Shown one piece after another: positions 456 to 24,000 of a stretch of DNA of 24,000 nt. Source of the DNA: Acetivibrio thermocellus ATCC 27405. GTDB taxonomy: Bacteria > Bacillota > Clostridia > Acetivibrionales > Acetivibrionaceae. The stretch lies in assembly GCF_000015865.1 (NCBI RefSeq), contig NC_009012.1, positions 1,891,081 to 1,915,080 of the forward strand. Direction: 5' to 3'. How positions within the stretch are numbered: the stretch's first letter is position 1; every line of letters starts with the position of its first letter. A model generated the notes under the pieces. That model saw nothing but the letters and a program-made list of their open reading frames with translations. It was not told the origin of the DNA and did no database searches. Position numbers and translations under genes: made by a program.

Positions 456-456
456 A

Positions 457-1184: not shown

Positions 1185-1232
1185 TTTAAAACATACTAAT
1201 CATATATGTTTAATACAAAAGGGGTGGTTTTT

Positions 1233-4532: not shown

Positions 4533-4545
4533 GGAGGGCGACCGT

Positions 4546-4881
4546 ATGAGTTACCGTATTGGATTTGCCAGTATTGACGGCACTGTTATTGATCAACACT
4601 TTGGCTCGGCCAGATACTGGCAGATATATGATGTGGATAAAGAGGCGCGTTTTGTGGAGACCCGAAAAACGGCCGCCAAATGTCAGGGTCATTGCGAAGG
4701 CGGATTTGACCATCTTCTTTCAGTGTTGGAGGACTGTGATGCAATATTTGTTTTGAAAATAGGTCAGGCTGCGGCAGCTGTTATGATAGCCAAAGGCAAA
4801 AGAGTCTTTGAAGCAACCGGTGAAGTGGAAGAGATCCTTGCCCAACTGGTCGGTGGCCGCTTGCATGAAGAAGGCGGTTAA
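4546..4881 (+). CDS. NifX/NafY/NifB-C-terminal type dinitrogenase FeMo-cofactor-binding domain protein
   Basis: About 111 aa. 'RIGFASIDGTVIDQHFGSARYWQIYDV' is the hallmark N-terminus of the Nitro_FeMo-Co domain. ATG 4546 follows AAGGAGG; the ORF-track start 4525 has no RBS. Confidence 0.85.
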   Translation: MSYRIGFASIDGTVIDQHFGSARYWQIYDVDKEARFVETRKTAAKCQGHCEGGFDHLLSVLEDCDAIFVLKIGQAAAAVMIAKGKRVFEATGEVEEILAQLVGGRLHEEGG

Positions 4882-4893
4882 GGAGGAAGTTTT

Positions 4894-5769: not shown

Positions 5770-5839
5770 AAGTTGCGCAATTGAAAGCTTAAGAGTTTGT
5801 TAATGATATTGCCCTATATATTGTGCAGGTTGAAAGTAA

Positions 5840-5886
5840 ACATGATTGAAAACAGATGAACAGAGAGAAGTTTACATGATTGAAAA
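5840..5886. repeat. Perfect 13-nt direct repeat ACATGATTGAAAA (5840-5852 and 5874-5886)
   Basis: This is read directly from the sequence. The two copies start 34 nt apart, inside the only large gap (271 nt) of the nif-like block. Related TTGAAA cores also occur at 5781 and 5830. Confidence 0.6.
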
Positions 5887-5966
5887 AAATAAAAAATTGG
5901 CAGCAGCAAGTGTAACTTGATGAAATAAAGCTGTATATTTATCAATCCTTTAGGAGGTGGTTTGAT

Positions 5967-6056
5967 ATGTGTAGTGACTGTGACATGACGGAAATGCCCC
6001 GATGTATACTTTCAAATTTATTTATAGGAGGAGATTTAACATGGCAAACGAATTAG
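5967..6056 (+). CDS. Candidate 29-aa Cys/Met-rich leader peptide (MCSDCDMTEMPRCILSNLFIGGDLTWQTN) overlapping the metY start
   Basis: The ATG lies 9 nt after GGAGG (5953-5957). Six of the first 13 codons are Cys or Met. The ORF reads across the metY Shine-Dalgarno (about 6027-6032) and the metY ATG (6041) and stops at 6054-6056. It is too short to appear in the ORF track, so this is hypothetical. Confidence 0.3.
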   Translation: MCSDCDMTEMPRCILSNLFIGGDLTWQTN

Positions 6057-7357: not shown

Positions 7358-7381
7358 TTTCGTAAAGGGGTGTGTTTTATC

Positions 7382-8443
7382 ATGAAAGGTTTTATAAAAT
7401 TGATCAGTGCAGTCGCTCTGTTTTCCATTTTTATAGGCTTGTTTTCCGGATGTGGCAGGACGAATACGGGAGGTACCCAGGACAACGGGAAAACGGGGAC
7501 ATCTTCAGCAGAATACAAATACGGAAAAATTGATATTCCCGGTAAAGACGGTTCACTTTGCGGTGCACCTATCTATATTGCATATGAAAAGGGCTTTTTC
7601 AAGCAAGAGGGCTTTGATGTCAACCTTATATCGGCAGATACCGAAACCCGTAAAATCGGTTTGAACAACGGTACCATCCCGATTGTCAACGGGGACTTTC
7701 AGTTCTTTCCCTCTATTGAAAACAATGTGAAGGTAAAGGTGGTGGACGGTCTCCACTATGGATGCATAAAACTGATTGTTCCGAAGGATTCACCGATTCA
7801 AGGAGTTCAAGACCTTAGGGGAAAAAAGATCAGCGTTGATGAAATAGGCGGCACTCCCCATCAGGTAGCATCGGTGTGGCTGGAGAAAAACGGAATTTCC
7901 GCAAAGCAGGAGGACGGAGAAGTTACGTTCCTTCCCTTCTCCGACGGAAATCTGGCAGTGGAAGCCCTGAGAAAAGGAGAGGTTGATGTTGCGGCACTGT
8001 GGGATCCCTTCGGCTCTGTTCAGGAAAAAACGGGAAATTACCGTGTAATTCTTGATATTTCCAAGGATGAACCTTTTGCCGGAAAATACTGCTGTTTCCT
8101 TTATGCTTCGGAAAAGCTGCTTGACGAAAAACCAGAACAGGTTGCCGCATTGCTGCGTGCATATAGGGCAGCCCAAAACTGGATTTCGGAAAACCCGGAA
8201 GAAGCCGTCGACATTATAATAAATGGTAAATACGCGCAGATTGAAGACAGAGAATTAGCCATTAAGCTTATCAAGAGCTATCAATACCCTTCTTATGCCG
8301 AACGGGAAAAAAATAAAACACAGGTTCGAGACAATGTTTACTATTTTGCCGAACAATTGAACCAAATTGGATATTTAAAGACGGATCCTGATACTTTCAC
8401 AAAGAATGCTTATGTCGAGGTCGACATCAACCTGGGTTTATAA
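7382..8443 (+). CDS. ABC transporter substrate-binding lipoprotein, NitT/TauT (SsuA/TauA/NMT1-like) family
   Basis: The signal peptide carries the lipobox 'LFSGC'. The periplasmic-binding fold resembles sulfonate/taurine/nitrate binding proteins ('GAPIYIAYEKGFFKQEGFDV', 'AALWDPF'). SsuC-like and SsuB-like genes follow. Confidence 0.85.
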   Translation: MKGFIKLISAVALFSIFIGLFSGCGRTNTGGTQDNGKTGTSSAEYKYGKIDIPGKDGSLCGAPIYIAYEKGFFKQEGFDVNLISADTETRKIGLNNGTIPIVNGDFQFFPSIENNVKVKVVDGLHYGCIKLIVPKDSPIQGVQDLRGKKISVDEIGGTPHQVASVWLEKNGISAKQEDGEVTFLPFSDGNLAVEALRKGEVDVAALWDPFGSVQEKTGNYRVILDISKDEPFAGKYCCFLYASEKLLDEKPEQVAALLRAYRAAQNWISENPEEAVDIIINGKYAQIEDRELAIKLIKSYQYPSYAEREKNKTQVRDNVYYFAEQLNQIGYLKTDPDTFTKNAYVEVDINLGL

Positions 8444-8458
8444 TATTTCCAAAGATTG

Positions 8459-8493
8459 TTTCCGCCCGGTGAACCGGAGGAACCGGGCGGAAA
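8459..8493 (+). promoter_or_regulatory. GC-rich intra-operon hairpin (11-bp perfect stem TTTCCGCCCGG / CCGGGCGGAAA, 13-nt loop)
   Basis: This is read directly from the sequence. It lies between the binding-protein stop and the permease RBS. No U-run follows, so it is more likely an mRNA-stabilising or decoupling element than a full terminator. Confidence 0.5.
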
Positions 8494-8523
8494 TAATAAA
8501 CACCCCACAGGAGGTATTCTGCT

Positions 8524-9591
8524 ATGTACGATTTAGTAAAACTACAAAGCCCAACATCCTCGGAATTAAAAGTAAAGCAACAATATGGAAAACTAAAAAC
8601 GGTTTCGGCCCAAAATTGGAGTACTAATTTTGTACTGACACTGGCAGGGTTTGCTGTAGCCATAGCAGCCAATATTCTGGTGAAGCAAGTGGCAAATGTG
8701 GAAATCAAAACTTATTTTGTTGCAGGAATTCCCTTCACATTTAATTTGCTTTACCGATTGGTCCTGGTAGTAATTATTTTGATTTATGCCGGTATGGGAA
8801 TATTTTCATATTTTGATCCTGTGCGAAGAGAAAAATTTTCCAGGCAGGCTCCCTTTCGTTTCGCTATGGGTCTGGCTATTACAGCTTGGGATATATTAGG
8901 AACAAAGCTTCTTTTATTACCGCAGCCGTTTTTCCCGGGACCGGCAAAAATTCTTGAATCCTTTTTGATTGAAGGAGATTTTATTTTACAAAATACCCTT
9001 TACTCCATTAAACTTTTTTTGGCCGGATTTACTCTGGGTGTGGTGTTTGGGGTGGGTACGGGAATTTTAATCGGTTGGTTTCCAAAGGTATATTATTGGG
9101 TATATCCAATATTAAAGATTACCGGTGTCATTCCTGCCGTAGCGTGGATGCCCTTTGCACTGACGCTTTTCCCGTCTCCGTTTTCAGCAGCTGTTTTTCT
9201 TATTGTAATATGCGCATGGTTTTCCATTGCGGCTCTTACAGCCCAGGGCATACAATCCACCCCAAAGTATCAGTTCGAAGTAGCTCGCACCCTGGGGGCA
9301 AAAACGCCATTTTTAATATTCCATGTTGCAGTGCCTCAGGCCATGCCCCAGATTTTTACCGGTATTTCCAATGCCAATGGTTTTGCTTTTACAACTTTGG
9401 TAATGGCAGAGATGATGGGCCAGCCGGGAGGATTGGGTTACTACATAAATTTAAGCAAGGTGTGGTCTGCCTACTATAAGGTATTTGCCTCCATTCTCGT
9501 TATGGCCCTGCTGTTCAGTCTAATTATGAAAATACTGGGGCTAATACAGGCGAATGTACTCCGGTGGCAGAAAGGATGGGTTAAGGAATGA
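8524..9591 (+). CDS. ABC transporter permease, NitT/TauT (SsuC/TauC-like) family, with an N-terminal extension of about 95 aa
   Basis: The core is a BPD_transp_1-type domain ('FEVARTLGAKTPFLIFHVAVPQAMPQIF' is the EAA-loop region). The N-terminal extension carries two extra hydrophobic helices. An AGGAGG RBS is present. Confidence 0.85.
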   Translation: MYDLVKLQSPTSSELKVKQQYGKLKTVSAQNWSTNFVLTLAGFAVAIAANILVKQVANVEIKTYFVAGIPFTFNLLYRLVLVVIILIYAGMGIFSYFDPVRREKFSRQAPFRFAMGLAITAWDILGTKLLLLPQPFFPGPAKILESFLIEGDFILQNTLYSIKLFLAGFTLGVVFGVGTGILIGWFPKVYYWVYPILKITGVIPAVAWMPFALTLFPSPFSAAVFLIVICAWFSIAALTAQGIQSTPKYQFEVARTLGAKTPFLIFHVAVPQAMPQIFTGISNANGFAFTTLVMAEMMGQPGGLGYYINLSKVWSAYYKVFASILVMALLFSLIMKILGLIQANVLRWQKGWVKE

Positions 9592-10391
9592 GCAAAAACT
9601 TATCGGTAATCAGTGATATTATTTTACATATAGAAAATGTAAATTACACTTATTATGACGACGCCGGAAACCATGTTGAGGTACTTCGGGATATCAATTT
9701 GTCCGTCCGCCGGGGAGAATTCCTTTCCATCATAGGTTCCTCCGGTTGCGGAAAGACGACGCTCTTACGGCTTATAGCAGGTCTTGACAAGCCGGAAACA
9801 GGAACCCTGATTCTTAACGGAGAGCAAATCTCCGGACCAGATCCAGAGCGGGGCTACGTTTTTCAGCATGGAGGTCTTTTTCAATGGCTGACTGTTGAGA
9901 AAAATATCGCAACCGGACTTAAGGCACGCCATGTTTATAGGGAGAATAAACACCGTATTGCCCATTATATAGACCTGATTGGACTTAAGGGGTTTGAAAA
10001 ATGTTACCCGCATCAGTTAAGCGGAGGTATGGCTCAGAGAGTTGCTATTGCCAGGGCATTGATCAATAATCCAAAGGTACTGCTTCTTGATGAACCCATG
10101 AGTGCCTTAGATTCCTTTACCCGTTCCGATATTCAGGATAAATTGCTTGAGCTTCATAAAGAAAATAAAACGACAATGATTCTGGTAACCCACGATGTGG
10201 ACGAAGCAATCTATCTTTCCGACCGTATTGTGGTTATGACTCCGCGGCCCGGAAAAATCAGTGAGATCATGGAGATTAATCTCCCACATCCTCGGCATCG
10301 TGGAGGAACCGAATTTCTTTCCCTTCGACGGAATATATTAGAAAAACTGCATCTGGCAAGTGCGCTGCCACAGCCGGAATATACCATATAG
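9588..10391 (+). CDS. ABC transporter ATP-binding protein, NitT/TauT (SsuB/TauB-like) family
   Basis: Walker A 'GSSGCGKTT', signature 'LSGGMAQR' and Walker B 'LLLDEP' are present. A 4-nt ATGA overlap joins it to the permease gene. Confidence 0.9.
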   Translation: MSKNLSVISDIILHIENVNYTYYDDAGNHVEVLRDINLSVRRGEFLSIIGSSGCGKTTLLRLIAGLDKPETGTLILNGEQISGPDPERGYVFQHGGLFQWLTVEKNIATGLKARHVYRENKHRIAHYIDLIGLKGFEKCYPHQLSGGMAQRVAIARALINNPKVLLLDEPMSALDSFTRSDIQDKLLELHKENKTTMILVTHDVDEAIYLSDRIVVMTPRPGKISEIMEINLPHPRHRGGTEFLSLRRNILEKLHLASALPQPEYTI

Positions 10392-11617: not shown

Positions 11618-12361
11618 CTAATCAAACACAATCTCAGCCTTTGCCATCGGAATGGCACTTTCCATAACTATTTTAAGCGCCAGTGAAGGGTCTATGACAT
11701 CCTTCCCCTGAAGCAGTCCATCCTGTATCGCCAATCCAAATAAAACCGGCCACTCACGCGGGGAAGCGCAATACTTCTCAATACGGGGGAGGAACAACGG
11801 CCAAAAAGCCTTGACAAAATTGATCGGAACGTCTGCCGTCCGGTGTCCCTCTGGAATCCTTGGAATGCCGTAGTTCTCGGTACCGACCGTGGCAGAGACA
11901 TATTTGAAAATCTCAAGGATGTCAAAATCAATATTCACACCCATGTGCTGCACTATGCCGGCAGCCAGGGACCATACAGAATATTGATTTTCAAACAGCG
12001 GCTTGTTTATAAGGTCGCCAAAAAAGTACCTCTTGCCGTTTTTCGCCTGTATGACCGTAAACACCTGTTCTTCACTCAGTCCTCTGATCTCAACGAATTC
12101 TTTCCTCAGGCTCGCCTGGCATGAATAACCCGCAAGGGCTCCCAGTGCGCATATAAGAGTCTCAATATGTACACCTCTTGAATCCCTGACAGCATTCAAT
12201 AAAGTGTTGAAAATTTCTTTAGCACCCAGTTTGGCGCCTATCAACGGGTCTTCCTTTCTCCTCTCATTAATCTGGCGGAAAAATATATCATCTATTCTTT
12301 CGTAATCACTCCCGCTCTCAGCATTGCTTTCATTCTTTTTTTCTTTCCCATCATTCATCAT
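11618..12361 (-). CDS. Hypothetical protein (247 aa), no family recognised
   Basis: This long ORF has protein-like composition. ATG 12361 lies 6 nt after AGGAG, which I prefer to the ORF-track start 12409. The gene has its own promoter and terminator. I recognise no motif. Confidence 0.7.
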   Translation of the reverse strand: MMNDGKEKKNESNAESGSDYERIDDIFFRQINERRKEDPLIGAKLGAKEIFNTLLNAVRDSRGVHIETLICALGALAGYSCQASLRKEFVEIRGLSEEQVFTVIQAKNGKRYFFGDLINKPLFENQYSVWSLAAGIVQHMGVNIDFDILEIFKYVSATVGTENYGIPRIPEGHRTADVPINFVKAFWPLFLPRIEKYCASPREWPVLFGLAIQDGLLQGKDVIDPSLALKIVMESAIPMAKAEIVFD

Positions 12362-12619
12362 TTTCACTCCTGATATTTGAAATTGGTTTTTTGTAATCTT
12401 TTTATTCAACCAAAAAATTCCCTTTCCTGGCTATATAGCTACGAGTTTCCCGGATTAATGTTTATCAGTCTATATCTGAACTATCATCTAATTCTTTCAG
12501 TAATTCTTCAGGTGTTTTATTTCCTTCTTCAAAATCTTTTTCTATTCTTGTTATTTTCTTCTCCATTTTTTCGATAAATTCATCCTCAAATTGTATATTT
12601 TTGCATTCTTTTTTTAAAC

Positions 12620-13036: not shown

Positions 13037-13747
13037 ATGAGCAGAGTGCCCACTGCGCACAACGCAGCGGTGGAAGGACAAATTGCAAAAACGGTTTTGA
13101 TGCCCGGTGATCCACTTCGTGCAAAATTTATTGCCGAAACCTATCTGGAAAATGTCACTTGTTTTAATACAGTGCGCAATATGTTAGGTTTTACCGGCAC
13201 CTATCAGGGAAAGCCGGTGTCTGTTATGGGTCACGGGATGGGTATTCCCTCTATCGGTATTTATTCATACGAGCTTTTCAATTTCTACGATGTGGACAAT
13301 ATCATCCGCATAGGCTCGGCCGGTGCCTTAAGCGACGATCTGGATCTAAAAGATCTCGTTATCGCCATGGGAGCCTGCACCGACTCCAATTACGCCAACC
13401 AATACCAGCTCCCCGGAACGTTTGCACCTATTGCCAGCTACACGCTGATGCAAAAAGCCATTGAGGAAGCACAGAAAAAAGGAATCAGCGTCGCCATCGG
13501 CAATGTTCTTTCCACGGATGTGTTTTACAACGCCAATAAAGGCGCTAACGATGCCTGGAAAAGCATGGGCGTGTTGTGTATCGAAATGGAAGCGGCAGCT
13601 TTATACATGAATGCGGCCCAGGCAGGAAAAAATGCTTTGTGTATCCTGTCCATCTCCGACCACATCTACAAAGGTACAGAACTGTCGGCTCAGGAACGCC
13701 AGCTCGGTTTCAAAAATATGATTGAAGTCGCCCTTGGAATTATCTAA
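13037..13747 (+). CDS. deoD: Purine nucleoside phosphorylase, DeoD type (hexameric PNP-I family)
   Basis: Motifs 'VLMPGDPLRAKFIAE', 'GHGMGIPS', 'RIGSAGA' and 'IEMEAAALY' are present, and the length is 236 aa. ATG 13037 follows AAAGGAGG; the ORF-track start 12929 is an unsupported extension. Confidence 0.92.
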   Translation: MSRVPTAHNAAVEGQIAKTVLMPGDPLRAKFIAETYLENVTCFNTVRNMLGFTGTYQGKPVSVMGHGMGIPSIGIYSYELFNFYDVDNIIRIGSAGALSDDLDLKDLVIAMGACTDSNYANQYQLPGTFAPIASYTLMQKAIEEAQKKGISVAIGNVLSTDVFYNANKGANDAWKSMGVLCIEMEAAALYMNAAQAGKNALCILSISDHIYKGTELSAQERQLGFKNMIEVALGII

Positions 13748-13829: not shown

Positions 13830-14897
13830 ATGAAAAAATTTCTGGCATTACTATTATCCGTTATAATAGTCTTTTCCCTGACTGCATGTGGCGGAAAAAA
13901 TTCCGGCAACAACAGCAATAACAGCAGTAATAACAACAGCAGCAACAATACCGGGGGCAAGAAGATTAAGATTGGTATGGTTACCGATGTTGGCGGTGTA
14001 AACGACGGCTCATTCAACCAGTCTGCCTGGGAAGGTCTGCAGCGCGCTCAAAAAGAACTTGGTGTAGAAGTTCGCTATGCCGAATCTGCAACCGATGCCG
14101 ACTATGCTCCCAACATTGAGGCTTTCATTGATGAAGGCTATGACCTCATCATCTGTGTAGGATACATGCTGGCTGATGCCACCAGAAAAGCAGCTGAAGC
14201 CAATCCAAATCAGAAATTTGCCATCATTGACGATGCTTCCATCGATTTGCCCAACGTTACCTGCCTGATGTTCGAGCAGAGCCAGGCTTCCTACCTGGTT
14301 GGCCTTGTTGCCGGTAAAATGACCAAAACAAACAAAGTAGGATTTGTTGTCGGTATGGTCAGCCAGACCATGAACGAATTCGGTTACGGGTATCTTGCCG
14401 GCGTGAAAGATGCCAACCCCAATGCTACTATCCTGCAGTTCAACGCTAACTCTTTCAGCAGCACCGAAACCGGTAAATCCGCTGCTACCACAATGATCAC
14501 CAACGGCGCGGATGTAATCTTCCACGCAGCTGGCGGAACGGGCTTAGGCGTAATCGAAGGCTGTAAAGACGCAGGCAAATGGGCAATCGGTGTAGACAGC
14601 GACCAGTCCCCGCTTGCTCCTGAAAACATTCTGACCTCTGCTATGAAACGCGTTGACAATGCATGCTTTGATATTGCCAAAGCCGTAAAGGAAGGCAATG
14701 TTAAGCCTGGCATCATCACGTATGACTTAAAGTCCGCAGGTGTAGACATCGCTCCTACCACCACCAACCTGCCAAAGGAAGTTCTCGATTATGTAAACCA
14801 AGCTAAGCAGGACATCATCAACGGTAAAATTACCGTTCCGAAGACCAAGGCTGAGTTTGAAGCAAAATACGGCAACATATACGAATTAGACGACTAA
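13830..14897 (+). CDS. BMP-family (PnrA/TmpC/Med-like) ABC transporter nucleoside-binding lipoprotein
   Basis: The lipobox is 'LTAC', followed by an Asn/Ser-rich linker. 'KIGMVTDVGGVNDGSFNQSAWEGL' and 'GVDSDQ' are hallmarks of the basic-membrane-protein family. Cognate ATPase and permease genes lie downstream. Confidence 0.9.
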   Translation: MKKFLALLLSVIIVFSLTACGGKNSGNNSNNSSNNNSSNNTGGKKIKIGMVTDVGGVNDGSFNQSAWEGLQRAQKELGVEVRYAESATDADYAPNIEAFIDEGYDLIICVGYMLADATRKAAEANPNQKFAIIDDASIDLPNVTCLMFEQSQASYLVGLVAGKMTKTNKVGFVVGMVSQTMNEFGYGYLAGVKDANPNATILQFNANSFSSTETGKSAATTMITNGADVIFHAAGGTGLGVIEGCKDAGKWAIGVDSDQSPLAPENILTSAMKRVDNACFDIAKAVKEGNVKPGIITYDLKSAGVDIAPTTTNLPKEVLDYVNQAKQDIINGKITVPKTKAEFEAKYGNIYELDD

Positions 14898-14951
14898 TTT
14901 TAACGATTTGAGCAAAATAACCTTGATTATCCAAGGAAGGGTGGCGAACAA

Positions 14952-16496
14952 TTGAGAGACATTTCCATGGAGCGCGTGAATGAAACGCGCAAGAAAATAC
15001 TGGATATCATCAAAAGCCCGATACTAACTCACGAGCAAAAGGTTGCTTCACTGACCAATACTGCCGATTCTCTGCTGGAAGTATTGGATTTGCCGCAGGG
15101 GCTGGACGAGCTGATGAATGTCCCGGCAGACAGAAAATGCATCTGCGACCTGAATGAGGGACACGCTCCGCTTCGTCCCCGATATATCATTCCCGACTAT
15201 GCCAAATTCATGAAGGAAGGCAGCCGGTTTCTGCAGCTTGCGCCACCGACCGACTTATATGAAGCGCTTAATTCTCTGCTGATTTTCTACAAGCATGTTC
15301 CAAGCGTAACCAACTTCCCGGTATATCTGGGACAGTTGGATACGCTGCTGGAACCTTTTATGCAAGACGTTGACGACACTACGGCCAAAAAACTTCTGCG
15401 AGGCTTTTTGGTGCACGTGGACCGTACTATTCTTGACTCCTTCTCCCATGCAAATATCGGTCCCAAGCCCACACGGACCGGCCGCTTGCTGCTTGAGGTG
15501 GAGGCAGAGCTTACGCAGGCCGTTCCCAATCTGACCTTAAAATACGAAGAAGGCGTAACCGATGACGACTTCGCCATTCAGGCTGTCAAGACAGCCCTGC
15601 GTTCGGCCAAGCCCAGCTTTGCCAACCACCGCATGTTTACGCAGGAACTTGGTGAGAATTATGTCATTGCCAGCTGCTATAACGGATTGCCGCTGGGCGG
15701 CGGATCATACACCCTTTGCCGCCTGATTTTGGGCAACATTGCAAAACGCGCGGGCGGAATTGAAGATTTCAGGACCAACCAGCTGCCCTATGTTATGGAC
15801 ATCATGGCACGTTACATGGACTCCCGTATCCGCTTTGAAGTCGAAGAAAGCGGCTTCTTTGAAAATAACTTCCTGGCCAGGGAAGGCTTTATCAGCCGCA
15901 AACGCTTCACTGCCATGTTTGGCCTGGTGGGTCTGGCGGAATGTGTAAATATCCTGCTGGAAAAAGAGGGCCGTCCCGGCCGCTTTGGCCACGATGAGTA
16001 CGCTACCGAGCTTGGTGAATCCATCATCAAGCAGATATATGAATTCAGTGAGAAACACCATAACCCCTACTGCGAAATAACCGGCGGTCATTTTCTGCTT
16101 CATGCGCAAGTAGGAATTTCAGAAGATCAAAATATCTCGCCGGGTACCCGTATCCCCATAGGAGAGGAACCCGACGAAATGATTGATCACCTCATGGTTG
16201 TCAATCATTTCCATAAATATTTTCCATCCGGAACGGGCGACATTTTCCCTATTGATGTTACTGTTCACCAAAATCCCGAATACGTGCTGGACATCGTCAA
16301 AGGCTCCTTCCGCAAGGAATTGCGCTATCTGTCCTTCTATGAGAAGAACAGCGATGTTATCCGTATCACGGGCTACCTGGTCAAACGGTCGGAAATCGAA
16401 AAGCTGAAAAGCGGTCAGAATGTGCTGCAGGACACCACCGCTTTGGGAATGGGCGCCGTCATGAATGGAAAGATTTTGGATAGAAAGGTGCGCTGA
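14952..16496 (+). CDS. yjjI: YjjI-family glycyl-radical enzyme homolog (short GRE of about 510 aa; function unknown)
   Basis: About 514 aa. A C-terminal glycyl-radical-type motif 'VIRITGYLV' matches the RVxG[FWY] pattern. A candidate Cys loop is 'VIASCYNG'. A GRE activase gene follows immediately. The start is TTG 14952, 7-8 nt after GGAAGGGTGG; ATG 14967 is the alternative. Confidence 0.8.
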   Translation: MRDISMERVNETRKKILDIIKSPILTHEQKVASLTNTADSLLEVLDLPQGLDELMNVPADRKCICDLNEGHAPLRPRYIIPDYAKFMKEGSRFLQLAPPTDLYEALNSLLIFYKHVPSVTNFPVYLGQLDTLLEPFMQDVDDTTAKKLLRGFLVHVDRTILDSFSHANIGPKPTRTGRLLLEVEAELTQAVPNLTLKYEEGVTDDDFAIQAVKTALRSAKPSFANHRMFTQELGENYVIASCYNGLPLGGGSYTLCRLILGNIAKRAGGIEDFRTNQLPYVMDIMARYMDSRIRFEVEESGFFENNFLAREGFISRKRFTAMFGLVGLAECVNILLEKEGRPGRFGHDEYATELGESIIKQIYEFSEKHHNPYCEITGGHFLLHAQVGISEDQNISPGTRIPIGEEPDEMIDHLMVVNHFHKYFPSGTGDIFPIDVTVHQNPEYVLDIVKGSFRKELRYLSFYEKNSDVIRITGYLVKRSEIEKLKSGQNVLQDTTALGMGAVMNGKILDRKVR

Positions 16497-16498
16497 TT

Positions 16499-17341
16499 AT
16501 GGTGGCCACTGTCAACAAAATCATACCTTTCAGCACCGTTGACGGGCCTGGCAACCGTACCGCTATCTTTTTACAGGGCTGCAATATGAACTGTTTGTAT
16601 TGCCATAATCCTGAAACAAGATGCAAATGTATGCACTGTGGGGCATGTGTCAACTCATGCCCCACAGGGGCATTAAGCTTCGAAGATGAAAAAGTTCGTT
16701 ACAACTGTGCCAAATGCGTCCATTGTGACAGCTGCATCAAGGCATGCCCTCATGACAGCAGCCCCAAAACCGTTGATATGACACCGGAACAGGTTTGGCG
16801 AAAGGTGGAAAAGCAAATCCCATTTATCCGCGGTATCACCGTTTCCGGCGGAGAATGCACACTTTACCCGGAGTTTCTGACAGAGCTGTTTATTCTGGCA
16901 CAGGCTCATGGCCTGTCCACCCTGATTGACTCCAATGGAACCCTCGATTTTGAACACTATCCTGATTTGCTGGCCGTTACCGACGGCGTAATGCTTGACA
17001 TAAAAGCATTTGACTGTGAAGAACACAAGCGGGTGACCGGATGGAGCAACCAGGTTGTATTGAAAAATGCACGTTTTCTTGCATCAAAGGGTAAGCTGTT
17101 TGAGGTTCGTACAGTAGTTTCACCAGGCCTTTTCGATGCAGAACAAACCATTACACAAACCAGCGACATGCTCAGTAGCTACTTACCCATTCGCCCCATC
17201 CGATATAAGCTTATATCCTATCGTCCGATGGGGGTTCGCCCGCAATATAAGGAGACTTTGCAAATTCCGACACGTAATCAAATGGAATATTACGCCGGGC
17301 TGCTTGCAGCCAAAGGCTTTAAAGATATTATTATCATTTAA
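16499..17341 (+). CDS. yjjW: YjjW-family glycyl-radical enzyme activating enzyme (radical SAM)
   Basis: 'STVDGPGNRTAIFLQGCNMNCLYCHNPE' is the PflA-type activase N-terminus. A ferredoxin-like insert carries 'CMHCGACVNSCP' and 'CVHCDSCIKACP'. The gene starts 2 nt after the yjjI-like stop. Confidence 0.85.
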   Translation: MVATVNKIIPFSTVDGPGNRTAIFLQGCNMNCLYCHNPETRCKCMHCGACVNSCPTGALSFEDEKVRYNCAKCVHCDSCIKACPHDSSPKTVDMTPEQVWRKVEKQIPFIRGITVSGGECTLYPEFLTELFILAQAHGLSTLIDSNGTLDFEHYPDLLAVTDGVMLDIKAFDCEEHKRVTGWSNQVVLKNARFLASKGKLFEVRTVVSPGLFDAEQTITQTSDMLSSYLPIRPIRYKLISYRPMGVRPQYKETLQIPTRNQMEYYAGLLAAKGFKDIIII

Positions 17342-17402: not shown

Positions 17403-18965
17403 TTGGAAAAAACAAGCCATATTGATCCGAACGTAGTTGCCGTTCAAATGACTGACATCGTCAAAAAGTTCGGTAACTTCGTGGCAAACGATCACATCAA
17501 CCTAACCGTTTACAAAGGCGAAGTTCACGCTATTCTTGGCGAAAACGGCGCCGGAAAAAGTACGCTGATGAACATATTGTACGGACTGTATAAACCGACA
17601 TCCGGTAGCATCTCCATATTCGGTTCTCCTGTGCATATCGAGAGTCCGCGCCATGCCATCGAACTTGGCATCGGCATGGTGCATCAGCACTTCATGCTGG
17701 TGGAACCCTTTACCGTTACCGAAAACATTATTCTCGGCATGGAGCCCACCAAAGGTATGGTGGTGGACATCAAAAAGGCACGCCGGAAAGTGTTGGAACT
17801 GTCCGAGCGCTATGGCATGCATGTGGATCCCGATGCCAAAATCGAAGACATTTCGGTAGGAATGCAGCAGCGTGTTGAAATCCTTAAAGTTCTGTACCGG
17901 GGCGCCAATATCCTTATTCTCGACGAGCCCACCGCCTCGCTGACACCGCAGGAAATCGAGGAACTGATCAACATCATCCACAACCTCACAGCCGACGGCA
18001 AAACCGTGTTGCTAATCACTCATAAGCTGAAGGAAATCAAGGCTTCGGCTGACAGGTGTACCATTATCCGACAGGGCAAATATATCGGCACTGTCGATGT
18101 AGAAGCTGTCAGTGAACACGATCTGGCTTCCATGATGGTAGGCCGCGATGTTCAATTTGTGGTGGACAAGAAGCCCATTGAGCCAGGTGAAGTCATTATT
18201 GACATACAGGACCTGCACGCCAGGGATTACCGCGGCGTGGAAGTGCTTAAGGGTTTAAGCCTTAAAGTGCGCCGTGGTGAAATCGTGGGTTTAGCCGGCG
18301 TAGACGGCAATGGTCAGACCGAGCTGGTGGAGATTTTAACCGGTTTGCGGAAAGGCGAATCCGGAAAAGTCATAATAGGCGGCAAAGATTTGTTCAACGC
18401 CGATGCACGTACACTGTTTGATAATGGCGTATCCAGCATTCCGGCCGACCGGCAAAAGCACGGGCTGATACTGGATTATTCTGTAGCTTACAATCTGGTT
18501 CTGCAAAATTATGAACAACCCCCTTTCTCCAAACGCGGTATTTTAAAGAAAGATGCGATTTACAAGCATGCGGCAGAGCTTGTCGAAAAATTTGACGTCC
18601 GGGGTGCTGACGGCGGCACCAAAGAAGCAGGCAAGCTGTCCGGCGGTAACCAGCAAAAGGTAATCATTGCCCGTGAGGTTACCAATGACAAGGATTTGCT
18701 TATCGCCGTTAATCCGACTCGCGGTTTGGACGTAGGCGCCATCGAGTTTGTTCACCGTTATATTGTGGAGCAGCGCAATAAAAATAAAGCTGTATTGCTG
18801 GTGTCCTTTGAACTGGATGAAATCATGAGCCTTTCCGACAGGATTGAAGTCATTTACAGCGGTAATATCGTAGGCAGTGTGCCAGGCCACGAGGCCGATG
18901 AAAAAGTCCTAGGACTGATGATGGCAGGAGGAACTAAAAATGAAACACAAAAACAACCAGAATAA
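17403..18965 (+). CDS. ABC transporter ATP-binding protein with duplicated ATPase domains (nucleoside/sugar CUT2 type, NupA/RbsA-like)
   Basis: There are two nucleotide-binding domains: 'GENGAGKST'/'ILILDEPT' and 'GVDGNGQTE'/'LSGGNQQK'. The start is assigned to TTG 17403 downstream of AAGGAGGG. The ORF-track start 17136 lies inside yjjW. Confidence 0.88.
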   Translation: MEKTSHIDPNVVAVQMTDIVKKFGNFVANDHINLTVYKGEVHAILGENGAGKSTLMNILYGLYKPTSGSISIFGSPVHIESPRHAIELGIGMVHQHFMLVEPFTVTENIILGMEPTKGMVVDIKKARRKVLELSERYGMHVDPDAKIEDISVGMQQRVEILKVLYRGANILILDEPTASLTPQEIEELINIIHNLTADGKTVLLITHKLKEIKASADRCTIIRQGKYIGTVDVEAVSEHDLASMMVGRDVQFVVDKKPIEPGEVIIDIQDLHARDYRGVEVLKGLSLKVRRGEIVGLAGVDGNGQTELVEILTGLRKGESGKVIIGGKDLFNADARTLFDNGVSSIPADRQKHGLILDYSVAYNLVLQNYEQPPFSKRGILKKDAIYKHAAELVEKFDVRGADGGTKEAGKLSGGNQQKVIIAREVTNDKDLLIAVNPTRGLDVGAIEFVHRYIVEQRNKNKAVLLVSFELDEIMSLSDRIEVIYSGNIVGSVPGHEADEKVLGLMMAGGTKNETQKQPE

Positions 18966-20058
18966 CAAGCCCTCTCAGAATATTTTGAAAATTAAAGCAC
19001 AAAGACTAATTCATCAAAATGCCCTATATACCATTATTGCTATTTTCTTCGGATTTCTGGTCGGCGGCATTTTCCTGTGGGCAGCCGGCTTCAGTCCCAT
19101 TGAAGCATATGCAAAGCTGTTCAGCAGCGTGTTCAGCCGTCCCAAATATCTCATTTGGTCGGTGATCTATGCAACTCCGCTGATATTTACGGGGTTAAGC
19201 GTGGCATTTTCTTACAAAATGGGTGTTTTCAACATCGGCGCCGAAGGGCAGTTTGTTGTAGGCTCACTGGCTGCTCTGTGCGTAGGCATCCTGGTGGACG
19301 CTCCTCCCGGGTTGCACGTGCTGCTATGTATGCTGGCCGCTGTTGCCGCCGGCATGCTGTGGAGCTTTCTGGTGGCAGTGCTGCGCGTCCGGTTCGGTAT
19401 CAATGAAGTTTTGTCCTTCATTATGTTCAACTGGATCGCCTTTTATTTTTCAAATTATGTAGTCAATACTGCAGCTATTCACAAGGTTGGCGGCGGAGAG
19501 GCTTCCAAGGATATTCGCGAATCTGCAAGAATTCTGCTGCCCCAATCGTTGCAGAATATTTTTCAGAGTAATAAAGCCAACTACGGTATTTTCCTGGCAA
19601 TTATTGCGGCAATTGTTATTTGGTTTATCCTGACGAAAACCACTCTTGGCTATAAAGTACAGGCCGTTGGTCTCAATCCTCACGCAGCCAAATACGGCGG
19701 TATTAATTCCAACAAGACGATGTATATTGCCATGAGCCTGTCGGGTGCTCTGGCAGCTTTGGGCGGTGCCGTGCAACTGATGGGTAACTCCATGCGCATC
19801 AGTCAGTTTGCCGGACAGGAAGGCTTCGGCTTCCAGGGAATCACCGTTGCGTTAATCGCAAGCTCTCACCCTATTGGTTGTATTTTTTCAGGGCTGTTTT
19901 ACGGTGCCATGAAATACGGCGGCTCCAAGCTCAATCTAATTGATGCTCCCACAGAAGTCGTTGACATCATTATGGGCACCATCGTGCTCTTTATCGCCAT
20001 ATCACATGTATTCCGCTATTTAATTACAAGACGGCTTAAGAATAAGGAGGACAAATAA
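18940..20058 (+). CDS. ABC transporter permease (BMP/nucleoside system, NupB/YufP-like)
   Basis: This is a polytopic membrane protein of the BPD_transp_2 type ('FNIGAEGQF', 'GINSNKT'). The start lies 8 nt after a GGAGG RBS. Confidence 0.88.
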   Translation: MKHKNNQNNKPSQNILKIKAQRLIHQNALYTIIAIFFGFLVGGIFLWAAGFSPIEAYAKLFSSVFSRPKYLIWSVIYATPLIFTGLSVAFSYKMGVFNIGAEGQFVVGSLAALCVGILVDAPPGLHVLLCMLAAVAAGMLWSFLVAVLRVRFGINEVLSFIMFNWIAFYFSNYVVNTAAIHKVGGGEASKDIRESARILLPQSLQNIFQSNKANYGIFLAIIAAIVIWFILTKTTLGYKVQAVGLNPHAAKYGGINSNKTMYIAMSLSGALAALGGAVQLMGNSMRISQFAGQEGFGFQGITVALIASSHPIGCIFSGLFYGAMKYGGSKLNLIDAPTEVVDIIMGTIVLFIAISHVFRYLITRRLKNKEDK

Positions 20059-20994
20059 ATGGAAGAACTGATTAAAAATCTCGGCTTGGTTATTAACGCC
20101 ACACTGATAGCTACACCTCCTTTGCTTTATGCTGCATTGGGCTCCACTTTTTCGGAACGCAGTGGCGTCGTTAACATTGGTATTGAAGGTATGATGACCA
20201 TCGGTGCTTTTGTAGGCGCGGCAGTGGCTCATTTCACCGGCAATGCCTGGCTGGCCTTTTTATGCGGAGGACTGGTTGGAGCTCTCTTCGGACTGATTCA
20301 TGCCATAGCCTGCGTTTCTTTCGGCGCAGACCAGACCATTTCCGGTACTGCCATAAACTTTTTGGCACCCGGCGTAGCTATCTTCGTATGCAAAGCACTG
20401 TTTGAACAATCCTCAAACACTCCTCCGCTGGACACAGCTCAAAAGCTGCCCAAGCTGTTCAACGGTGTTTTCGAGGTGGGAAGTTTCTGGAATAATGTTC
20501 TTAACACCTACGTTGCTACTTATCTGGCTTTTGTGGCAGTGGCTATCGTATGGTTTATCTTCTACAAGACCAGATTCGGCATGCGTCTTCGTGCCGTAGG
20601 TGAGCATCCCAAGGCTTGTGAAACTCAAGGTATCAATGTATTCCGCATCCGCTACATTGCCGTGATTGCTTCCGGCTTTTTCGCAGGTCTTGGTGGTGCT
20701 TATGTTACCCTGTGCACTGTCAGCCAGTTCCGTCCGGAAGTTATTGTCGGCCAGGGCTTTATCGCCATCGCCGCTGTTATCTTCGGTAAATTCACCCCTC
20801 ACGGAGCCATGGGTGCCTGCCTGCTGTTCGGATTGTGCAACGGCTTAAAGGTTCTTTTGGGTTCAGGCAATGTAATATCGCCCAACCTGATTTCCATGAT
20901 TCCTTACGTTGTAACAATCATTACGCTGGTACTGTTTGTCGGTAAATCCCGCGTACCTGCCGCCAGCGGCAAACCGTATTTAAAACAGAAGTAA
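20059..20994 (+). CDS. ABC transporter permease (BMP/nucleoside system, NupC/YufQ-like)
   Basis: This is the second BPD_transp_2 permease ('NIGIEGMM', 'GINVFRIRY'). Its ATG directly abuts the upstream TAA stop, and an AAGGAGG RBS is present. Confidence 0.88.
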   Translation: MEELIKNLGLVINATLIATPPLLYAALGSTFSERSGVVNIGIEGMMTIGAFVGAAVAHFTGNAWLAFLCGGLVGALFGLIHAIACVSFGADQTISGTAINFLAPGVAIFVCKALFEQSSNTPPLDTAQKLPKLFNGVFEVGSFWNNVLNTYVATYLAFVAVAIVWFIFYKTRFGMRLRAVGEHPKACETQGINVFRIRYIAVIASGFFAGLGGAYVTLCTVSQFRPEVIVGQGFIAIAAVIFGKFTPHGAMGACLLFGLCNGLKVLLGSGNVISPNLISMIPYVVTIITLVLFVGKSRVPAASGKPYLKQK

Positions 20995-21075: not shown

Positions 21076-21492
21076 ATGACACGATCTGAGTTGATTTCCC
21101 ATGCTTTACAAGCACGTAAACAATCCTATTCCCCCTATTCGCATTTTGCGGTAGGTGCAGCACTGCTGTCCAAAGATGGGAGGCTGTATACCGGCTGCAA
21201 CATAGAAAATGCGGCCTATACACCCAGCAACTGCGCTGAACGTACTGCTTTCTTTAAAGCAGTCAGCGAAGGTGTCAGGGAGTTTTCCGCCATTGCCATT
21301 GTTGGTGGTCCGGAAGGAGCGGACACTCTGGCTTTGTGTGCCCCCTGCGGCGTGTGCCGCCAAGTCATGATGGAATTTTGCGATCCAAAAACTTTCGAAG
21401 TAATACTTGCAAAAGACCCTCAGCATTATGAAATTTTCACATTGGAGCAAATCCTCCCCATGGGTTTTGGACCAAAGGATTTGGAAAAATAA
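21076..21492 (+). CDS. cdd: Cytidine deaminase (homotetrameric type)
   Basis: 138 aa. The zinc and catalytic motifs 'CAERTA' and 'PCGVCRQ' are present. Confidence 0.92.
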
Positions 21493-21548: not shown

Positions 21549-22217
21549 ATGAATACACAAGACATATTATCCCATGTGGATCACACATTACTGTTGCAAA
21601 CTGCTACCTGGCCCGAAATCCAGGCACTTTGTGACGATGCTATCAAGTATCAAACCGCTTCAGTATGCATTCCGCCATGCTATGTGGCCCGCGCAAAAGA
21701 GTATGTAGGCGACCGCATGGTTATCTGTACCGTTATCGGCTTTCCCAATGGCAATATGACTACTGCCGCCAAAGTTTTTGAAACCCAGGACGCCATAGCA
21801 AACGGCGCAGATGAAATCGATATGGTCATCAATATAGGCGCCTTGAAAAACAAAGAATACGACTATGTACTTAAGGAAATTAAAGCCATTAAGCAAGCCT
21901 GCGGTGAACGTATTCTGAAAGTCATCATTGAAACATGCCTGCTTACTGAAGAAGAAAAGATTGTTATGTGCGATTTGGTAACCAGATCCGGGGCAGACTA
22001 TATCAAAACCAGTACGGGATTTTCCACTGCAGGCGCCACCTTTGAGGATATTGAGCTGTTTGCAAAACATGTTGGCCCCAATGTCAAAATTAAGGCAGCG
22101 GGTGGCATTTCCAATTTTAATGATGCCAGGAAATATATAGAGCTCGGTGCTGACCGTCTGGGAACCAGCCGTCTGGTGAAACTCATGAAATCCCAGTCGT
22201 ATGACGGTTTGTATTGA
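21549..22217 (+). CDS. deoC: Deoxyribose-phosphate aldolase
   Basis: 222 aa. 'VDHTLL', '[11 protein letters not shown]', 'IKTSTGF' (Schiff-base lysine) and 'KAAGGI' are present. Confidence 0.92.
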
Positions 22218-22442: not shown

Positions 22443-23222
22443 CTAATCTGTGTTTTCGCTTATGAAACGTGCCGGAGAACAACCGATATATTTTTTGAAT
22501 ACCTTAATAAAATATTTATAATCGGAAAAACCAACCATTTCTGCAATTTCATATATCTTATACTGATTTTCTCTTAACAAATCTACCGCCTTTTGGATAC
22601 GATACCGATTCAGATAATCGTTAAATGTATATCCCGTCTCATTTTTAAATTTTACATTCAGATAAGTACAGGACATTCGGCATTGCTCACTAATATCGGT
22701 AAGAGCCAGCCGTGTATGATAATTGTCATGAATTGTTTGAATCATAAAATCTACATAACGGTTCCCTGTTTTCCTTTCCTTATATTCCAGGATTCCTAAC
22801 TTTTTCTTTTCAGCATCTATCTGACGAATTGCATTCTTTATATTCGTATCGGCATTTCTCTTAGCCTGAATCTTTCGAATGGCTTCATAGAGCTTAGAAT
22901 AATCAATTGGCTTTAACAGGTATTCCGTAACTCCCAGGCTAATACCTCTTCTTGCATATTCAAATTCCCCATAGCCTGACACAATAATAGCATCATACCC
23001 ATATTCCCGTATACTTTTTTCCAGCATTTCAAGCCCGTCCATGACCGGCATGTTAATGTCTGCAATTACAATGTCCGGACGGTACTTTTGAATTTTCTCC
23101 AAACCATCCTGGCCATTTACCGCCTCTCCTACCACAATGCAATCCACTTCATGCCATTTTGGCATAAACATTAATCCTTTTCGCATAATGTCTTCATCTT
23201 CTACAATTAACACCTTATTCAT
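22443..23222 (-). CDS. Two-component response regulator, CheY receiver plus AraC-type HTH (YesN-like)
   Basis: 'VLIVEDEDIMRKGL', 'DIVIADINMPVMDGLE' and the C-terminal AraC HTH 'IAEMVGFSDYKYFIKVFKKYIGCSPARF' are present. ATG 23222 has GGAG 7 nt upstream; ATG 23228 is the alternative. The gene overlaps the kinase stop. Confidence 0.9.
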   Translation of the reverse strand: MNKVLIVEDEDIMRKGLMFMPKWHEVDCIVVGEAVNGQDGLEKIQKYRPDIVIADINMPVMDGLEMLEKSIREYGYDAIIVSGYGEFEYARRGISLGVTEYLLKPIDYSKLYEAIRKIQAKRNADTNIKNAIRQIDAEKKKLGILEYKERKTGNRYVDFMIQTIHDNYHTRLALTDISEQCRMSCTYLNVKFKNETGYTFNDYLNRYRIQKAVDLLRENQYKIYEIAEMVGFSDYKYFIKVFKKYIGCSPARFISENTD

Positions 23223-24000
23223 TATCATCTCCCCTGTTTATTGGAAGAATTATATTTACCACTGTGCCTTTTCCATAGGTACTTTCTATTTTTAATCCAT
23301 ACGGCGGTCCGTATAGCAGTCTGATAACTCTGTGGGAATTATACATTCCTATGTGTTCTTTATATACATCTTCTCTTTCCAAATCCTTAATTAATTCGTT
23401 CAGTATTTCAGGTTCAATCCCTGAACCATTATCCTCAACACTCAGCCTCAAATTTTCATTTTCAACGGAGGCAGTAATGTTTACATTAATAGTTTCAACA
23501 TTTTTCATCCCATGTTTTAATGCATTCTCTACAATTGGTTGGATTACTAATTTGGGAACTTTACATTCCATAAGTTCCTCAGGTATATCAATACTATATG
23601 TCAAACGACGATTATAACGCATCTTTTGCAACATTAAATAATCTTTTACATGTTCTATGTCCGTCTTAAGAGGTACAATGGTATCTCGATAATATATGTT
23701 ATAACGCATTATATTTGCGAAAGCCATTATCATCTCTGAAGCTTTAGCCGGATCAATCATAACCTCATAACGTAAAGTTTCCAGAACATTAAATAAAAAA
23801 TGAGGATTAATTTTTTCTTCCAGTTGTCTGATTTCCATTATTCTTTTTCTCTCCATCAGCTCATTGTTTCTTTTTTGAAGCTCTTCGCGCTGCAACACCA
23901 TTTGCCGGAAAGTATCATTCAATTCCTGAAACTCCTCAAAAACATGCGGACGCAACGAATACTCCATATTCCCTCTTCCCATTTCCAATATAGATTTTCT
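23215..24000 (-). CDS. Sensor histidine kinase, YesM/LytS-type (His_kinase plus HATPase_c), N-terminus outside the window
   Basis: 'QLEEKINPHFLFNVLE' is the phospho-acceptor box of the PF06580 type, and the ATPase region carries 'QPIVENALKHG' and 'VEDNGSGI'. The frame stays open to base 24000, so the gene is truncated by the window edge. Confidence 0.88.
   Translation of the reverse strand, partial: RKSILEMGRGNMEYSLRPHVFEEFQELNDTFRQMVLQREELQKRNNELMERKRIMEIRQLEEKINPHFLFNVLETLRYEVMIDPAKASEMIMAFANIMRYNIYYRDTIVPLKTDIEHVKDYLMLQKMRYNRRLTYSIDIPEELMECKVPKLVIQPIVENALKHGMKNVETINVNITASVENENLRLSVEDNGSGIEPEILNELIKDLEREDVYKEHIGMYNSHRVIRLLYGPPYGLKIESTYGKGTVVNIILPINRGDDNE

Follow-up and report, generated by a model that had tools for sequence, protein, structure and literature searches.

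A YjjI-type glycyl-radical enzyme and its YjjW-type activase are encoded inside a nucleoside transporter gene cluster of Acetivibrio thermocellus

Gene organization of the yjjI-yjjW locus

The window analysed here is a stretch of 24,000 nucleotides (nt) from Acetivibrio thermocellus ATCC 27405 (contig NC_009012.1, positions 1,891,081 to 1,915,080), which carries two adjacent genes, yjjI and yjjW, that code for a glycyl-radical enzyme of the YjjI family and for its radical S-adenosylmethionine (SAM) activase of the YjjW family. Both genes are found in a cluster with the order deoD-lbp-yjjI-yjjW-ATPase-permease-permease-cdd-deoC, in which all genes have the same direction (+) and the intergenic gaps are of 54-82 nt. 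The genes, labelled by searches with hidden Markov models (HMMs), are listed below with their positions in the window, lengths in amino acids (aa) and scores.

13037-13747, + strand: deoD, DeoD-type purine nucleoside phosphorylase, 236 aa (NCBIfam NF004489, 347.5 bits; TIGR00107, 306 bits)
13830-14897, + strand: lbp, BMP/PnrA-family lipoprotein, substrate-binding protein of an ATP-binding cassette (ABC) transporter (Pfam PF02608, 263.9 bits)
14952-16496, + strand: yjjI-family glycyl-radical enzyme, 514 aa (TIGR04040, 690.9 bits; PF11230, 757.1 bits)
16499-17341, + strand: yjjW-family glycyl-radical-enzyme activase, 280 aa (TIGR04041, 397.8 bits)
17403-18965, + strand: double-domain ABC ATPase, start TTG 17403, start codon checked (two PF00005 stretches)
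18940-20058, + strand: ABC permease 1, BPD_transp_2 (PF02653, 148.5 bits)
20059-20994, + strand: ABC permease 2, BPD_transp_2 (PF02653, 158.8 bits)
21076-21492, + strand: cdd, cytidine deaminase (NF004064, 142.8 bits; TIGR01354, 142 bits)
21549-22217, + strand: deoC, deoxyribose-phosphate aldolase (TIGR00126, 253.5 bits)

The yjjI-yjjW pair is located between the binding-protein gene and the ATPase gene and interrupts a nucleoside-type ABC transporter, as a first-pass annotation of the window had described. The same annotation had spoken of an operon running from deoD to deoC; the cluster is co-directional over this whole length, but the published operon call spans only six genes, from lbp to msd (PMC7471329). 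A scan for promoters and terminators gave counts no higher than those in shuffled sequence and is thus uninformative on operon boundaries. Searches of Rfam found nothing in the whole window at gathering thresholds or in the deoD leader at E <= 1, so there is no recognisable riboswitch. The true start of deoD is the ATG at 13037, downstream of an AGGAGG site, and the ATPase scores best in NCBIfam with double ATPases of the BMP and sugar types.

Between lbp and yjjI, a gap of 54 nt holds a short, perfect inverted repeat, CCTTG ATTATC CAAGG, at 14921-14936, just 5' of the yjjI ribosome-binding site, and this repeat might lower the expression of the downstream genes relative to that of the binding protein.

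Family assignment of YjjI and YjjW

The product of yjjI matches exactly the sequence of Cthe_1577 (ABN52803.1, UniProt A3DFS4). Its match to TIGR04040, the NCBIfam model 'YjjI family glycine radical enzyme', has an E-value of 8e-208, lies far above the cutoff of 498.3 bits and covers profile positions 2-497 of 497, while the match to PF11230 covers positions 1-485 of 485. The product of yjjW is an exact database match to Cthe_1578 and scores well above the cutoff of 250.2 bits of TIGR04041, 'YjjW family glycine radical enzyme activase'. With such HMM E-values the assignment of both proteins is not due to chance; the two model accessions, which the first-pass annotation had cited, proved to be correct, and RefSeq already labels Cthe_1577 and Cthe_1578 as YjjI and YjjW family members. 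YjjI is therefore a catalogued member of a known, uncharacterised family: TIGR04040 is still typed 'hypoth_equivalog', and the searchable literature on YjjI, YjjW and DUF3029 holds regulation and screening data only and assigns no reaction, as had been stated at first.

The open reading frame (ORF) of 514 aa begins at a TTG; in other strains the annotated protein is the 509-aa form, which corresponds to a start at the alternative ATG at 14967. The C-terminal IRITGYLV motif is present as first described, and the sites of main interest in both genes are the following.

15675-15677, + strand: codon of Cys242 of YjjI, predicted thiyl-radical cysteine in an S-C-Y-N loop (family alignments)
16359-16382, + strand: glycyl-radical motif IRITGYLV of YjjI, residues 470-477, with the codon of Gly474 at 16371-16373
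16580-16603, + strand: radical-SAM motif CNMNCLYC of YjjW (CX3CX2C; C28, C32 and C35; PF04055 match)
16619-16756, + strand: two-cluster ferredoxin insert of YjjW, residues 42-83 (Fer4_7 dicluster match, residues 43-86)

YjjI and its E. coli counterpart are 40% identical over the full length, and the stretches R471-I-T-G474-Y and S241-C242-Y-N244 are invariant or nearly so in the family alignments. Nineteen full-length YjjI sequences share C242, G474, R471, E69, R77, Y78, D130, D157, H166, N193, S241, N244, R257, E311, H384, Q386, D392 and R400 without exception. When 14 more sequences are added, some of them fragments, to give an alignment of 33 (30-88% identity), only C242 and E311 are strictly invariant. 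Cys242 is the sole invariant cysteine, and no cysteine is found past residue 374. The family is a small one by sequence diversity, with 526 matches among 1.84 billion 50%-identity representatives and about 20 full-length clusters, yet it is widespread, as a genome scan found relatives in at least 586 bacterial species genomes, including those of abundant gut Lachnospiraceae.

YjjW, which is 41% identical to E. coli YjjW along its whole length, starts 2 nt past the stop codon of yjjI, and the two genes are probably translationally coupled. Together with the TIGR04041 match and the two-cluster insert, which is built by two CX2CX2CX3CP motifs at residues 44-54 and 73-83, this position bears out the PflA-type radical-SAM activase that had been proposed to follow yjjI directly. 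Cthe_1578 has been counted among four putative pyruvate formate-lyase (PFL) activases (PMC3492117); this role is rejected here, since the protein is a YjjW equivalog that adjoins its own enzyme.

Partner activases are not uniform in the family. In the P0136 and P0126 lineages (L086:11557-12309 and L089:2785-3528) they are only 247-250 aa long and have no ferredoxin-domain match, so the two-cluster insert is not universal. Other loci have an intact yjjI with no adjacent yjjW (L017, L031 and L071; L104, L106-L108 and similar ones), in three clostridial loci of this kind the ATPase gene follows directly 3' of yjjI, and in a large Haemophilus-like group the neighbour of yjjI is recQ; in these cases yjjW may have been lost or may lie at another site in the genome.

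Predicted fold of YjjI

An AlphaFold model of YjjI, built on the 33-sequence alignment, is confident (pLDDT 93, pTM 0.91). All 50 listed Foldseek matches of this model in the Protein Data Bank (PDB) are glycyl-radical enzymes, the best with E 2e-16, in agreement with the glycyl-radical fold on which the first-pass annotation depended. Enzymes of this superfamily have a ten-stranded alpha/beta barrel with a finger loop that carries the cysteine and a C-terminal loop that carries the glycine, and the model agrees with this fold. The top matches are class III ribonucleotide reductases (RNRs), from Prevotella copri (8p2s, TM-score for the query (TMq) 0.75) and phage T4 (1h78, TMq 0.72 and TM-score for the target (TMt) 0.70), followed by PFL-type enzymes such as HypD, PflD, CutC and benzylsuccinate synthase with TMq of about 0.6. 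A phmmer search of YjjI against all PDB sequences gave no match at E <= 1, so the protein has no direct structural homologue.

The alignment of YjjI with E. coli NrdD by hhalign (88% probability, 315 columns) places Cys242 on NrdD Cys384, the thiyl-radical cysteine of that enzyme, while the second active-site cysteine of NrdD, C175 (C79 in the T4 enzyme), is aligned with a gap adjacent to two invariant residues of YjjI, R77 and Y78. The Pfam models NRDD (PF13597) and PFL-like (PF02901) reach 21.9 and 19.4 bits on YjjI, below their gathering thresholds of 26.2 and 24.3, respectively, and because both scores are below gathering YjjI forms a distinct short branch of glycyl-radical enzymes. Two assignments were consequently rejected: NrdD, on account of the NRDD score and of the absence of both the second active-site cysteine and the C-terminal four-cysteine zinc site, and PFL-like, on account of the PF02901 score and of the S-C-Y-N loop, where PFL has two adjacent cysteines and the eliminases have Cys-x-Glu. 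As no cysteine follows residue 374, there is no zinc ribbon of NrdD type. YjjI is nearest to NrdD in fold, yet it is not an NrdD.

YjjI and class III RNRs share the closest solved fold, the aligned thiyl cysteine in the finger loop, the C-terminal glycyl-radical loop and a nucleoside- or nucleotide-related context. They differ in that YjjI has only 12-15% identity to them, is about 100-200 residues shorter and lacks the ATP-cone in addition to the second cysteine and the zinc ribbon; its activase is of the PflA type with a ferredoxin insert, whereas class III RNR uses NrdG. With the glycyl-radical 1,2-eliminases and dehydratases (glycerol dehydratase, CutC, HypD and PflD), YjjI shares the superfamily barrel (Foldseek E 1e-11 to 1e-14) and a single catalytic cysteine, and the activases of these enzymes, which have a two-cluster ferredoxin insert, are the closest non-YjjW activase models to YjjW. 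One member of this group, PflD, has a structure with 1,5-anhydromannitol-6-phosphate bound. The eliminases are however longer (about 770-860 aa, against 514 aa), give lower TM-scores than NrdD and carry a Cys-x-Glu loop, while the loop of YjjI is Cys-Tyr-Asn. The predicted active site, NrdD-like yet with a single conserved cysteine, is new here.

The surrounding transporter

Residues 23-355 of Lbp are 100% identical to PDB 7X0R, 'Lbp', which was solved at 1.5 Å by Yan et al. in 2022, and the mature N-terminus is an Asn/Ser-rich low-complexity linker (NSGNNSNNSSNNNSSNN). The protein received its name, laminaribiose-binding protein, in 2009. The density of the co-purified ligand, however, matches neither laminaribiose nor cellobiose and is fitted well by guanosine, with PnrA-like contacts, and a mutant in transporter L still grows on laminaribiose (PMC9601137). 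The guanosine in 7X0R is the depositors' fit to density and not the result of a binding assay. In the operon figure of the same study the two inserted genes are labelled only 'hp' and 'rsam' (PMC9601137), so the gene order of A. thermocellus was published earlier, drawn but never interpreted.

On the sequence level, the transporter is predicted to be a BMP/PnrA nucleoside ABC importer. It shares with the importers of Treponema pallidum (PnrA/TmpC, 2FQW) and Streptococcus pneumoniae (PnrA, 6Y9U) a PF02608 lipoprotein (phmmer E 1e-48 to 1e-51), a double-domain ATPase, two BPD_transp_2 permeases and, by 7X0R, a guanosine-like ligand. In an ordinary BMP importer the binding-protein gene is followed directly by the ATPase gene, as in L020, L026 and L056, whereas here yjjI and yjjW are interposed. 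Because deoD, cdd and deoC flank the transporter and the nucleoside-gene context is conserved across species, as described below, a nucleoside-binding protein is the favoured reading of Lbp over a laminaribiose-binding one, and the genomic context gives independent support in a disputed question.

Linkage to nucleoside genes in close clostridial relatives

A genome scan, with a 10-sequence subset of the alignment as query, was restricted to the best 80 of at least 586 species genomes and so covers close clostridial relatives only. The resulting 80 species-level loci have 69-92% identity and come mostly from Lachnospiraceae and other Clostridia. Directly 5' of yjjI lies bmp in 59 of 77 loci, and directly 3' of it lies yjjW in 66 of 80. 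Of the 66 loci whose length suffices to judge the core bmp-yjjI-yjjW-ATPase-permease-permease, 46 have it in exactly this form. One or more nucleoside genes are found in the available flanks of 72 of the 80 loci; eight loci have none, and two of these are contigs that do not exceed 3.3 kb. The genes deoD and cdd occur in 39 loci each, and deoB and deoC in 28 each (deoD was counted with E. coli DeoD as the reference). Rearranged clostridial loci keep the linkage in other orders, such as transporter-yjjI-deoD-deoB-crp-yjjW and deoD-yjjI-yjjW. Recurrent neighbours without a label in the locus tables were identified by Pfam as adenosine deaminase, a Crp/Fnr-type regulator and a YczE/DUF6198 membrane protein.

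The YczE/DUF6198 protein recurs as a neighbour of yjjI in two phyla (for example L110:9131-9787, - strand, and L041:19640-20272, + strand). Its gene is divergent from and adjacent to yjjI in 34 of the 45 loci of one 60%-identity cluster, which includes the Haemophilus-like loci, and precedes a second deoD in 12 clostridial loci. This membrane protein may belong to the same pathway as YjjI.

Linkage in distant relatives

More distant loci were taken from 50%-identity representatives and from a metagenome scan. In E. coli K-12, yjjW (b4379) and yjjI (b4380) lie directly beside deoCABD, as the first-pass annotation had stated, but they are divergent from the deo genes, with a gap of 258 bp, and are not co-transcribed with them. 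The E. coli and A. thermocellus pairs are alike in their family scores far above cutoff, in their Gly and Cys motifs, in the order of enzyme gene and activase gene and in having deo neighbours. They differ in that the E. coli pair is a separate, divergent, FNR-activated unit, while that of A. thermocellus is inserted into the genes of an ABC importer, with the binding-protein gene on one side and the ATPase gene on the other.

Other lineages present the pair with different partners. Haemophilus-like loci have the order pgk-fba-heptosyltransferase-yczE-yjjI-yjjW-nupC-deoD-rplK-rplA-rpoB, in which NupC represents another family of nucleoside transporters (CNT). The P0128 lineage combines genes for a nucleoside hydrolase, an ADP-ribosylglycohydrolase-like protein, a ribokinase-like protein, a purine nucleoside phosphorylase (PNP) and a sulfatase-like protein with yjjI, yjjW, a major facilitator superfamily (MFS) transporter, Bmp and ABC genes, and the P0132 lineage has a nucleoside hydrolase, an ADP-ribosylglycohydrolase-like protein and BMP-type permeases. 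Locus L172 has the order yjjI-yjjW-bmp-ABC-amidohydrolase-deoD, in P0135 a Bmp ABC system lies 6 kb away, and the P0141 gene is preceded by that of a BMP-type permease. In four environmental loci (L146, L149, L156 and L166; for example L149:7744-8214) a gene for a NUDIX hydrolase is found between yjjI and yjjW. These insertions and the ADP-ribosylglycohydrolase-like neighbours suggest that the substrate may originate from ADP-ribose or from a different ribosyl diphosphate.

The P0141 gene itself (L098:1264-2805, GCA_024449855.1) gives, when translated with table 11, a protein that differs from the recorded one, which may be due to an alternative genetic code or to a sequence difference.

When the family is grouped by single linkage at 60% identity, 8-9 of the 15 clusters have nucleoside-related neighbours. 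For comparison, the chance that a random 20-kb window holds such genes is put at a few per cent, which is a rough estimate and not a measurement. Since the pair recurs with three transporter families and two families of enzymes that cleave glycosidic bonds, and in several arrangements of the genes, neither chance nor simple inheritance is a likely explanation. The conserved linkage to deo and other nucleoside genes, which had been argued from A. thermocellus and E. coli, consequently holds in a wider set of bacteria, with several lineages that do not have it. The breadth and the convergence of this nucleoside association of yjjI-yjjW are new here.

Expression and regulation

E. coli yjjI is directly activated by FNR (PMC3688515), and Yersinia intermedia yjjI is 4.3-fold up in the absence of oxygen. 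Peaks of CRP in chromatin immunoprecipitation sequencing are found inside the E. coli yjjI coding region (L001:10516-12066) and in the intergenic region between yjjI and deoC (PMC4287617); the peak in yjjI is consistent with control elements of the deo operon that extend into this gene. In A. thermocellus, the six-gene lbp operon is up on xylose in a xylose-engineered strain (PMC7471329).

Other genes of the window

A nitrogenase-like cluster, which by analogy resembles a salvage system for sulfur compounds, lies upstream of deoD at 448-10391 (+). It codes for two component-1-type proteins of PF00148 (1717-3192 and 3189-4532), a Nitro_FeMo-Co protein (4525-4881), a radical-SAM protein (4894-5769), a pyridoxal-phosphate enzyme of Cys/Met metabolism (6002-7357) and an NMT1-type binding protein with its ABC permease and ATPase (7370-10391), and also for a GNAT protein and another ABC ATPase. 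Next, an ORF of 263 aa on the opposite strand (11618-12409, -) has no Pfam or NCBIfam match, and about 600 nt of AT-rich non-coding DNA, for which Rfam is empty even at E <= 1, separate it from deoD. Downstream of deoC, at 22443-23988 (-), an AraC-type response regulator and a histidine kinase are encoded convergently; they are YesN/YesM-like, as judged by eye from the translation.

Proposed function of YjjI and YjjW

From the family assignment and the gene context together, we consider it probable that YjjI, an oxygen-sensitive glycyl-radical enzyme, and YjjW, its dedicated activase, act on something that is delivered by the surrounding genes for nucleoside uptake and breakdown. The link of YjjI to nucleoside or ribosyl metabolism, taken separately, is held with somewhat greater confidence, and the particular chemistry, a ribosyl elimination proposed by analogy, only tentatively. 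That the pathway is one of catabolism rather than salvage is something that we infer, as is the identity of the substrate.

By its family membership, YjjW would generate a 5'-deoxyadenosyl radical at the [4Fe-4S] cluster that binds SAM, which the two ferredoxin-type clusters would feed, and this radical would take a hydrogen from Gly474 of YjjI. The glycyl radical would then move to Cys242, which sits at the finger-loop tip in the NrdD-like barrel, and the resulting thiyl radical would abstract a hydrogen atom from the substrate; conservation and alignment identify these two residues, and the chemistry is a prediction. The substrate may be a ribosyl compound derived from imported nucleosides, either a nucleoside, ribose 1-phosphate or ribose 5-phosphate. 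A ribosyl substrate is favoured because the neighbours, which vary with the lineage, converge on the ribosyl unit: they provide phosphorolysis to ribose 1-phosphate, hydrolysis together with a ribokinase-like kinase, the deoB and deoC steps, or NUDIX and ADP-ribosylglycohydrolase-like activities. Genes for base degradation, such as those for xanthine dehydrogenase or dihydropyrimidinase, are absent from every locus examined. A ligand that is polar, and possibly phosphorylated, would agree well with the invariant Arg, His, Asp and Asn residues. The reaction could be a redox-neutral radical 1,2-elimination or rearrangement, for which the glycyl-radical eliminases are the template; such a reaction is favoured over a reduction of the RNR type because YjjI has only one invariant cysteine.

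Several observations weigh against this proposal. The P0130, P0136 and P0124 lineages have no nucleoside genes near yjjIW, a clostridial-like group has the pair beside ruvAB-spoIID-queA-tgt with no nucleoside neighbours, and in many Haemophilus-like loci yjjI lies beside recQ and is accompanied by neither yjjW nor nupC nor deoD. Six of the 15 clusters at 60% identity have no nucleoside-related neighbour, although three of these six are represented by short contigs. The transcription of the lbp operon is very low on cellulose or cellobiose (PMC5327387), Cthe_1578 was undetected in the cellobiose proteome (PMC3492117), and a study of 2009 reported, from isothermal titration calorimetry, that Lbp binds laminaribiose with a Kd of 0.13 uM (as tabulated in PMC11212667). 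The searchable literature reports no reaction, radical or phenotype for any member of the family. Since the known pathways of nucleoside breakdown work without a radical step, YjjI could have a conditional or minor role. Lastly, the elimination chemistry is drawn from analogy and from the absent second conserved cysteine, and for this part of the proposal doubt outweighs belief.

Alternative explanations

Among the alternatives, two are unlikely to a similar degree. The first is that YjjI is a reductase derived from class III RNR, which removes the 2'-hydroxyl of a free ribonucleoside or ribose phosphate with formate or a thiol as reductant and gives a deoxyribosyl product for DeoC or for salvage. 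The NrdD-like fold with its aligned thiyl cysteine, the weak NRDD match, the presence of deoC in the cluster here and beside the pair in E. coli, and the activation of yjjI by FNR alongside formate-producing metabolism all speak for such an enzyme. However, Cys242 is the only invariant cysteine and NrdD C175 has no counterpart, the zinc ribbon is missing, the NRDD score remains below gathering (21.9 against 26.2 bits), and many of the linked clusters have no deoC.

The second is that the linkage has no functional meaning, and that yjjIW have an unrelated role, for example in nitrogen metabolism as predicted from co-expression with narG, and are hitchhikers in nucleoside loci. The lineages that lack nucleoside neighbours and the divergent, separately transcribed pair of E. 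coli would agree with this, and so would a cMonkey bicluster that groups yjjI with nitrate-respiration genes (PMC3228777), although shared control by FNR would explain this grouping too. Against it, the association recurs with BMP-ABC, NupC and MFS transporters, with PNP and nucleoside hydrolase and in varied gene orders, and it is present in Bacillota and in two orders of Gammaproteobacteria, while by our estimate, which is not a measurement, only some few per cent of random 20-kb windows would hold such genes.

It is less probable still that YjjI acts on a released or modified nucleobase, in an anaerobic ring-modifying step after DeoD, Cdd or Add. The DeoD-type phosphorylase is the most consistently linked enzyme, and deaminases (cdd, add and an MtaD/DadD-like amidohydrolase) are frequent neighbours, but no other base-degrading genes accompany them in any locus examined, and the ribokinase-like, NUDIX, ADP-ribosylglycohydrolase-like, deoB and deoC neighbours are centred on the sugar.

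Very little probability is given to the disposal, by YjjI and YjjW, of 5-deoxy or 5-thio sugars that derive from 5'-deoxyadenosine or methylthioadenosine (MTA), by-products of radical-SAM enzymes. DeoD-type phosphorylases can cleave nucleosides of the 5'-deoxyadenosine and MTA type, which counts for it, and the amidohydrolase encoded between the transporter and deoD in L172, whose top NCBIfam matches are generic TRZ/ATZ-family amidohydrolases, also scores as a 5'-deoxyadenosine deaminase and as an MTA/S-adenosylhomocysteine deaminase, all below cutoff. This locus is however the only one of its kind, known 5-deoxyribose salvage needs no radical enzyme, and the transporter context implies an external substrate.

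The weakest alternative, that the transporter imports laminaribiose and YjjI acts on a sugar derived from beta-glucan, has the calorimetric Kd in its favour and is close to dismissed by the ligand density at 1.5 Å, by the growth of the transporter-L mutant on laminaribiose (PMC9601137) and by the PnrA-family membership of Lbp between deoD, cdd and deoC.

Implications for nucleoside metabolism and for the YjjI family

The comparative evidence narrows the search for the substrate of YjjI from anything to nucleosides and ribosyl products, so the function of E. coli YjjI becomes directly testable with a short list of substrates, and nothing established is overturned. Glycyl-radical enzymes have repeatedly been found behind key anaerobic chemistry. 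Tractable organisms for such work are E. coli, Haemophilus and A. thermocellus, a biofuel organism for which the transporter-L mutant exists. Two annotations are affected, since Lbp is better described as nucleoside-binding and Cthe_1578 as a YjjW activase and not as a spare PFL activase.

A more far-reaching idea, to which we give some but rather low credence, is that YjjI is a stripped-down descendant of the anaerobic RNR fold, which would carry out a radical 2-dehydration or deoxygenation of a free ribonucleoside, ribose 1-phosphate or ribose 5-phosphate, and not of a nucleotide, and thereby open a route to C2 and C3 units. If this were true, it would constitute a new anaerobic route for ribonucleosides, for example one that feeds a DeoC-type cleavage and bypasses the pentose phosphate pathway, and such a route would be present in E. 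coli, in Haemophilus and in many gut and cellulolytic Clostridia.

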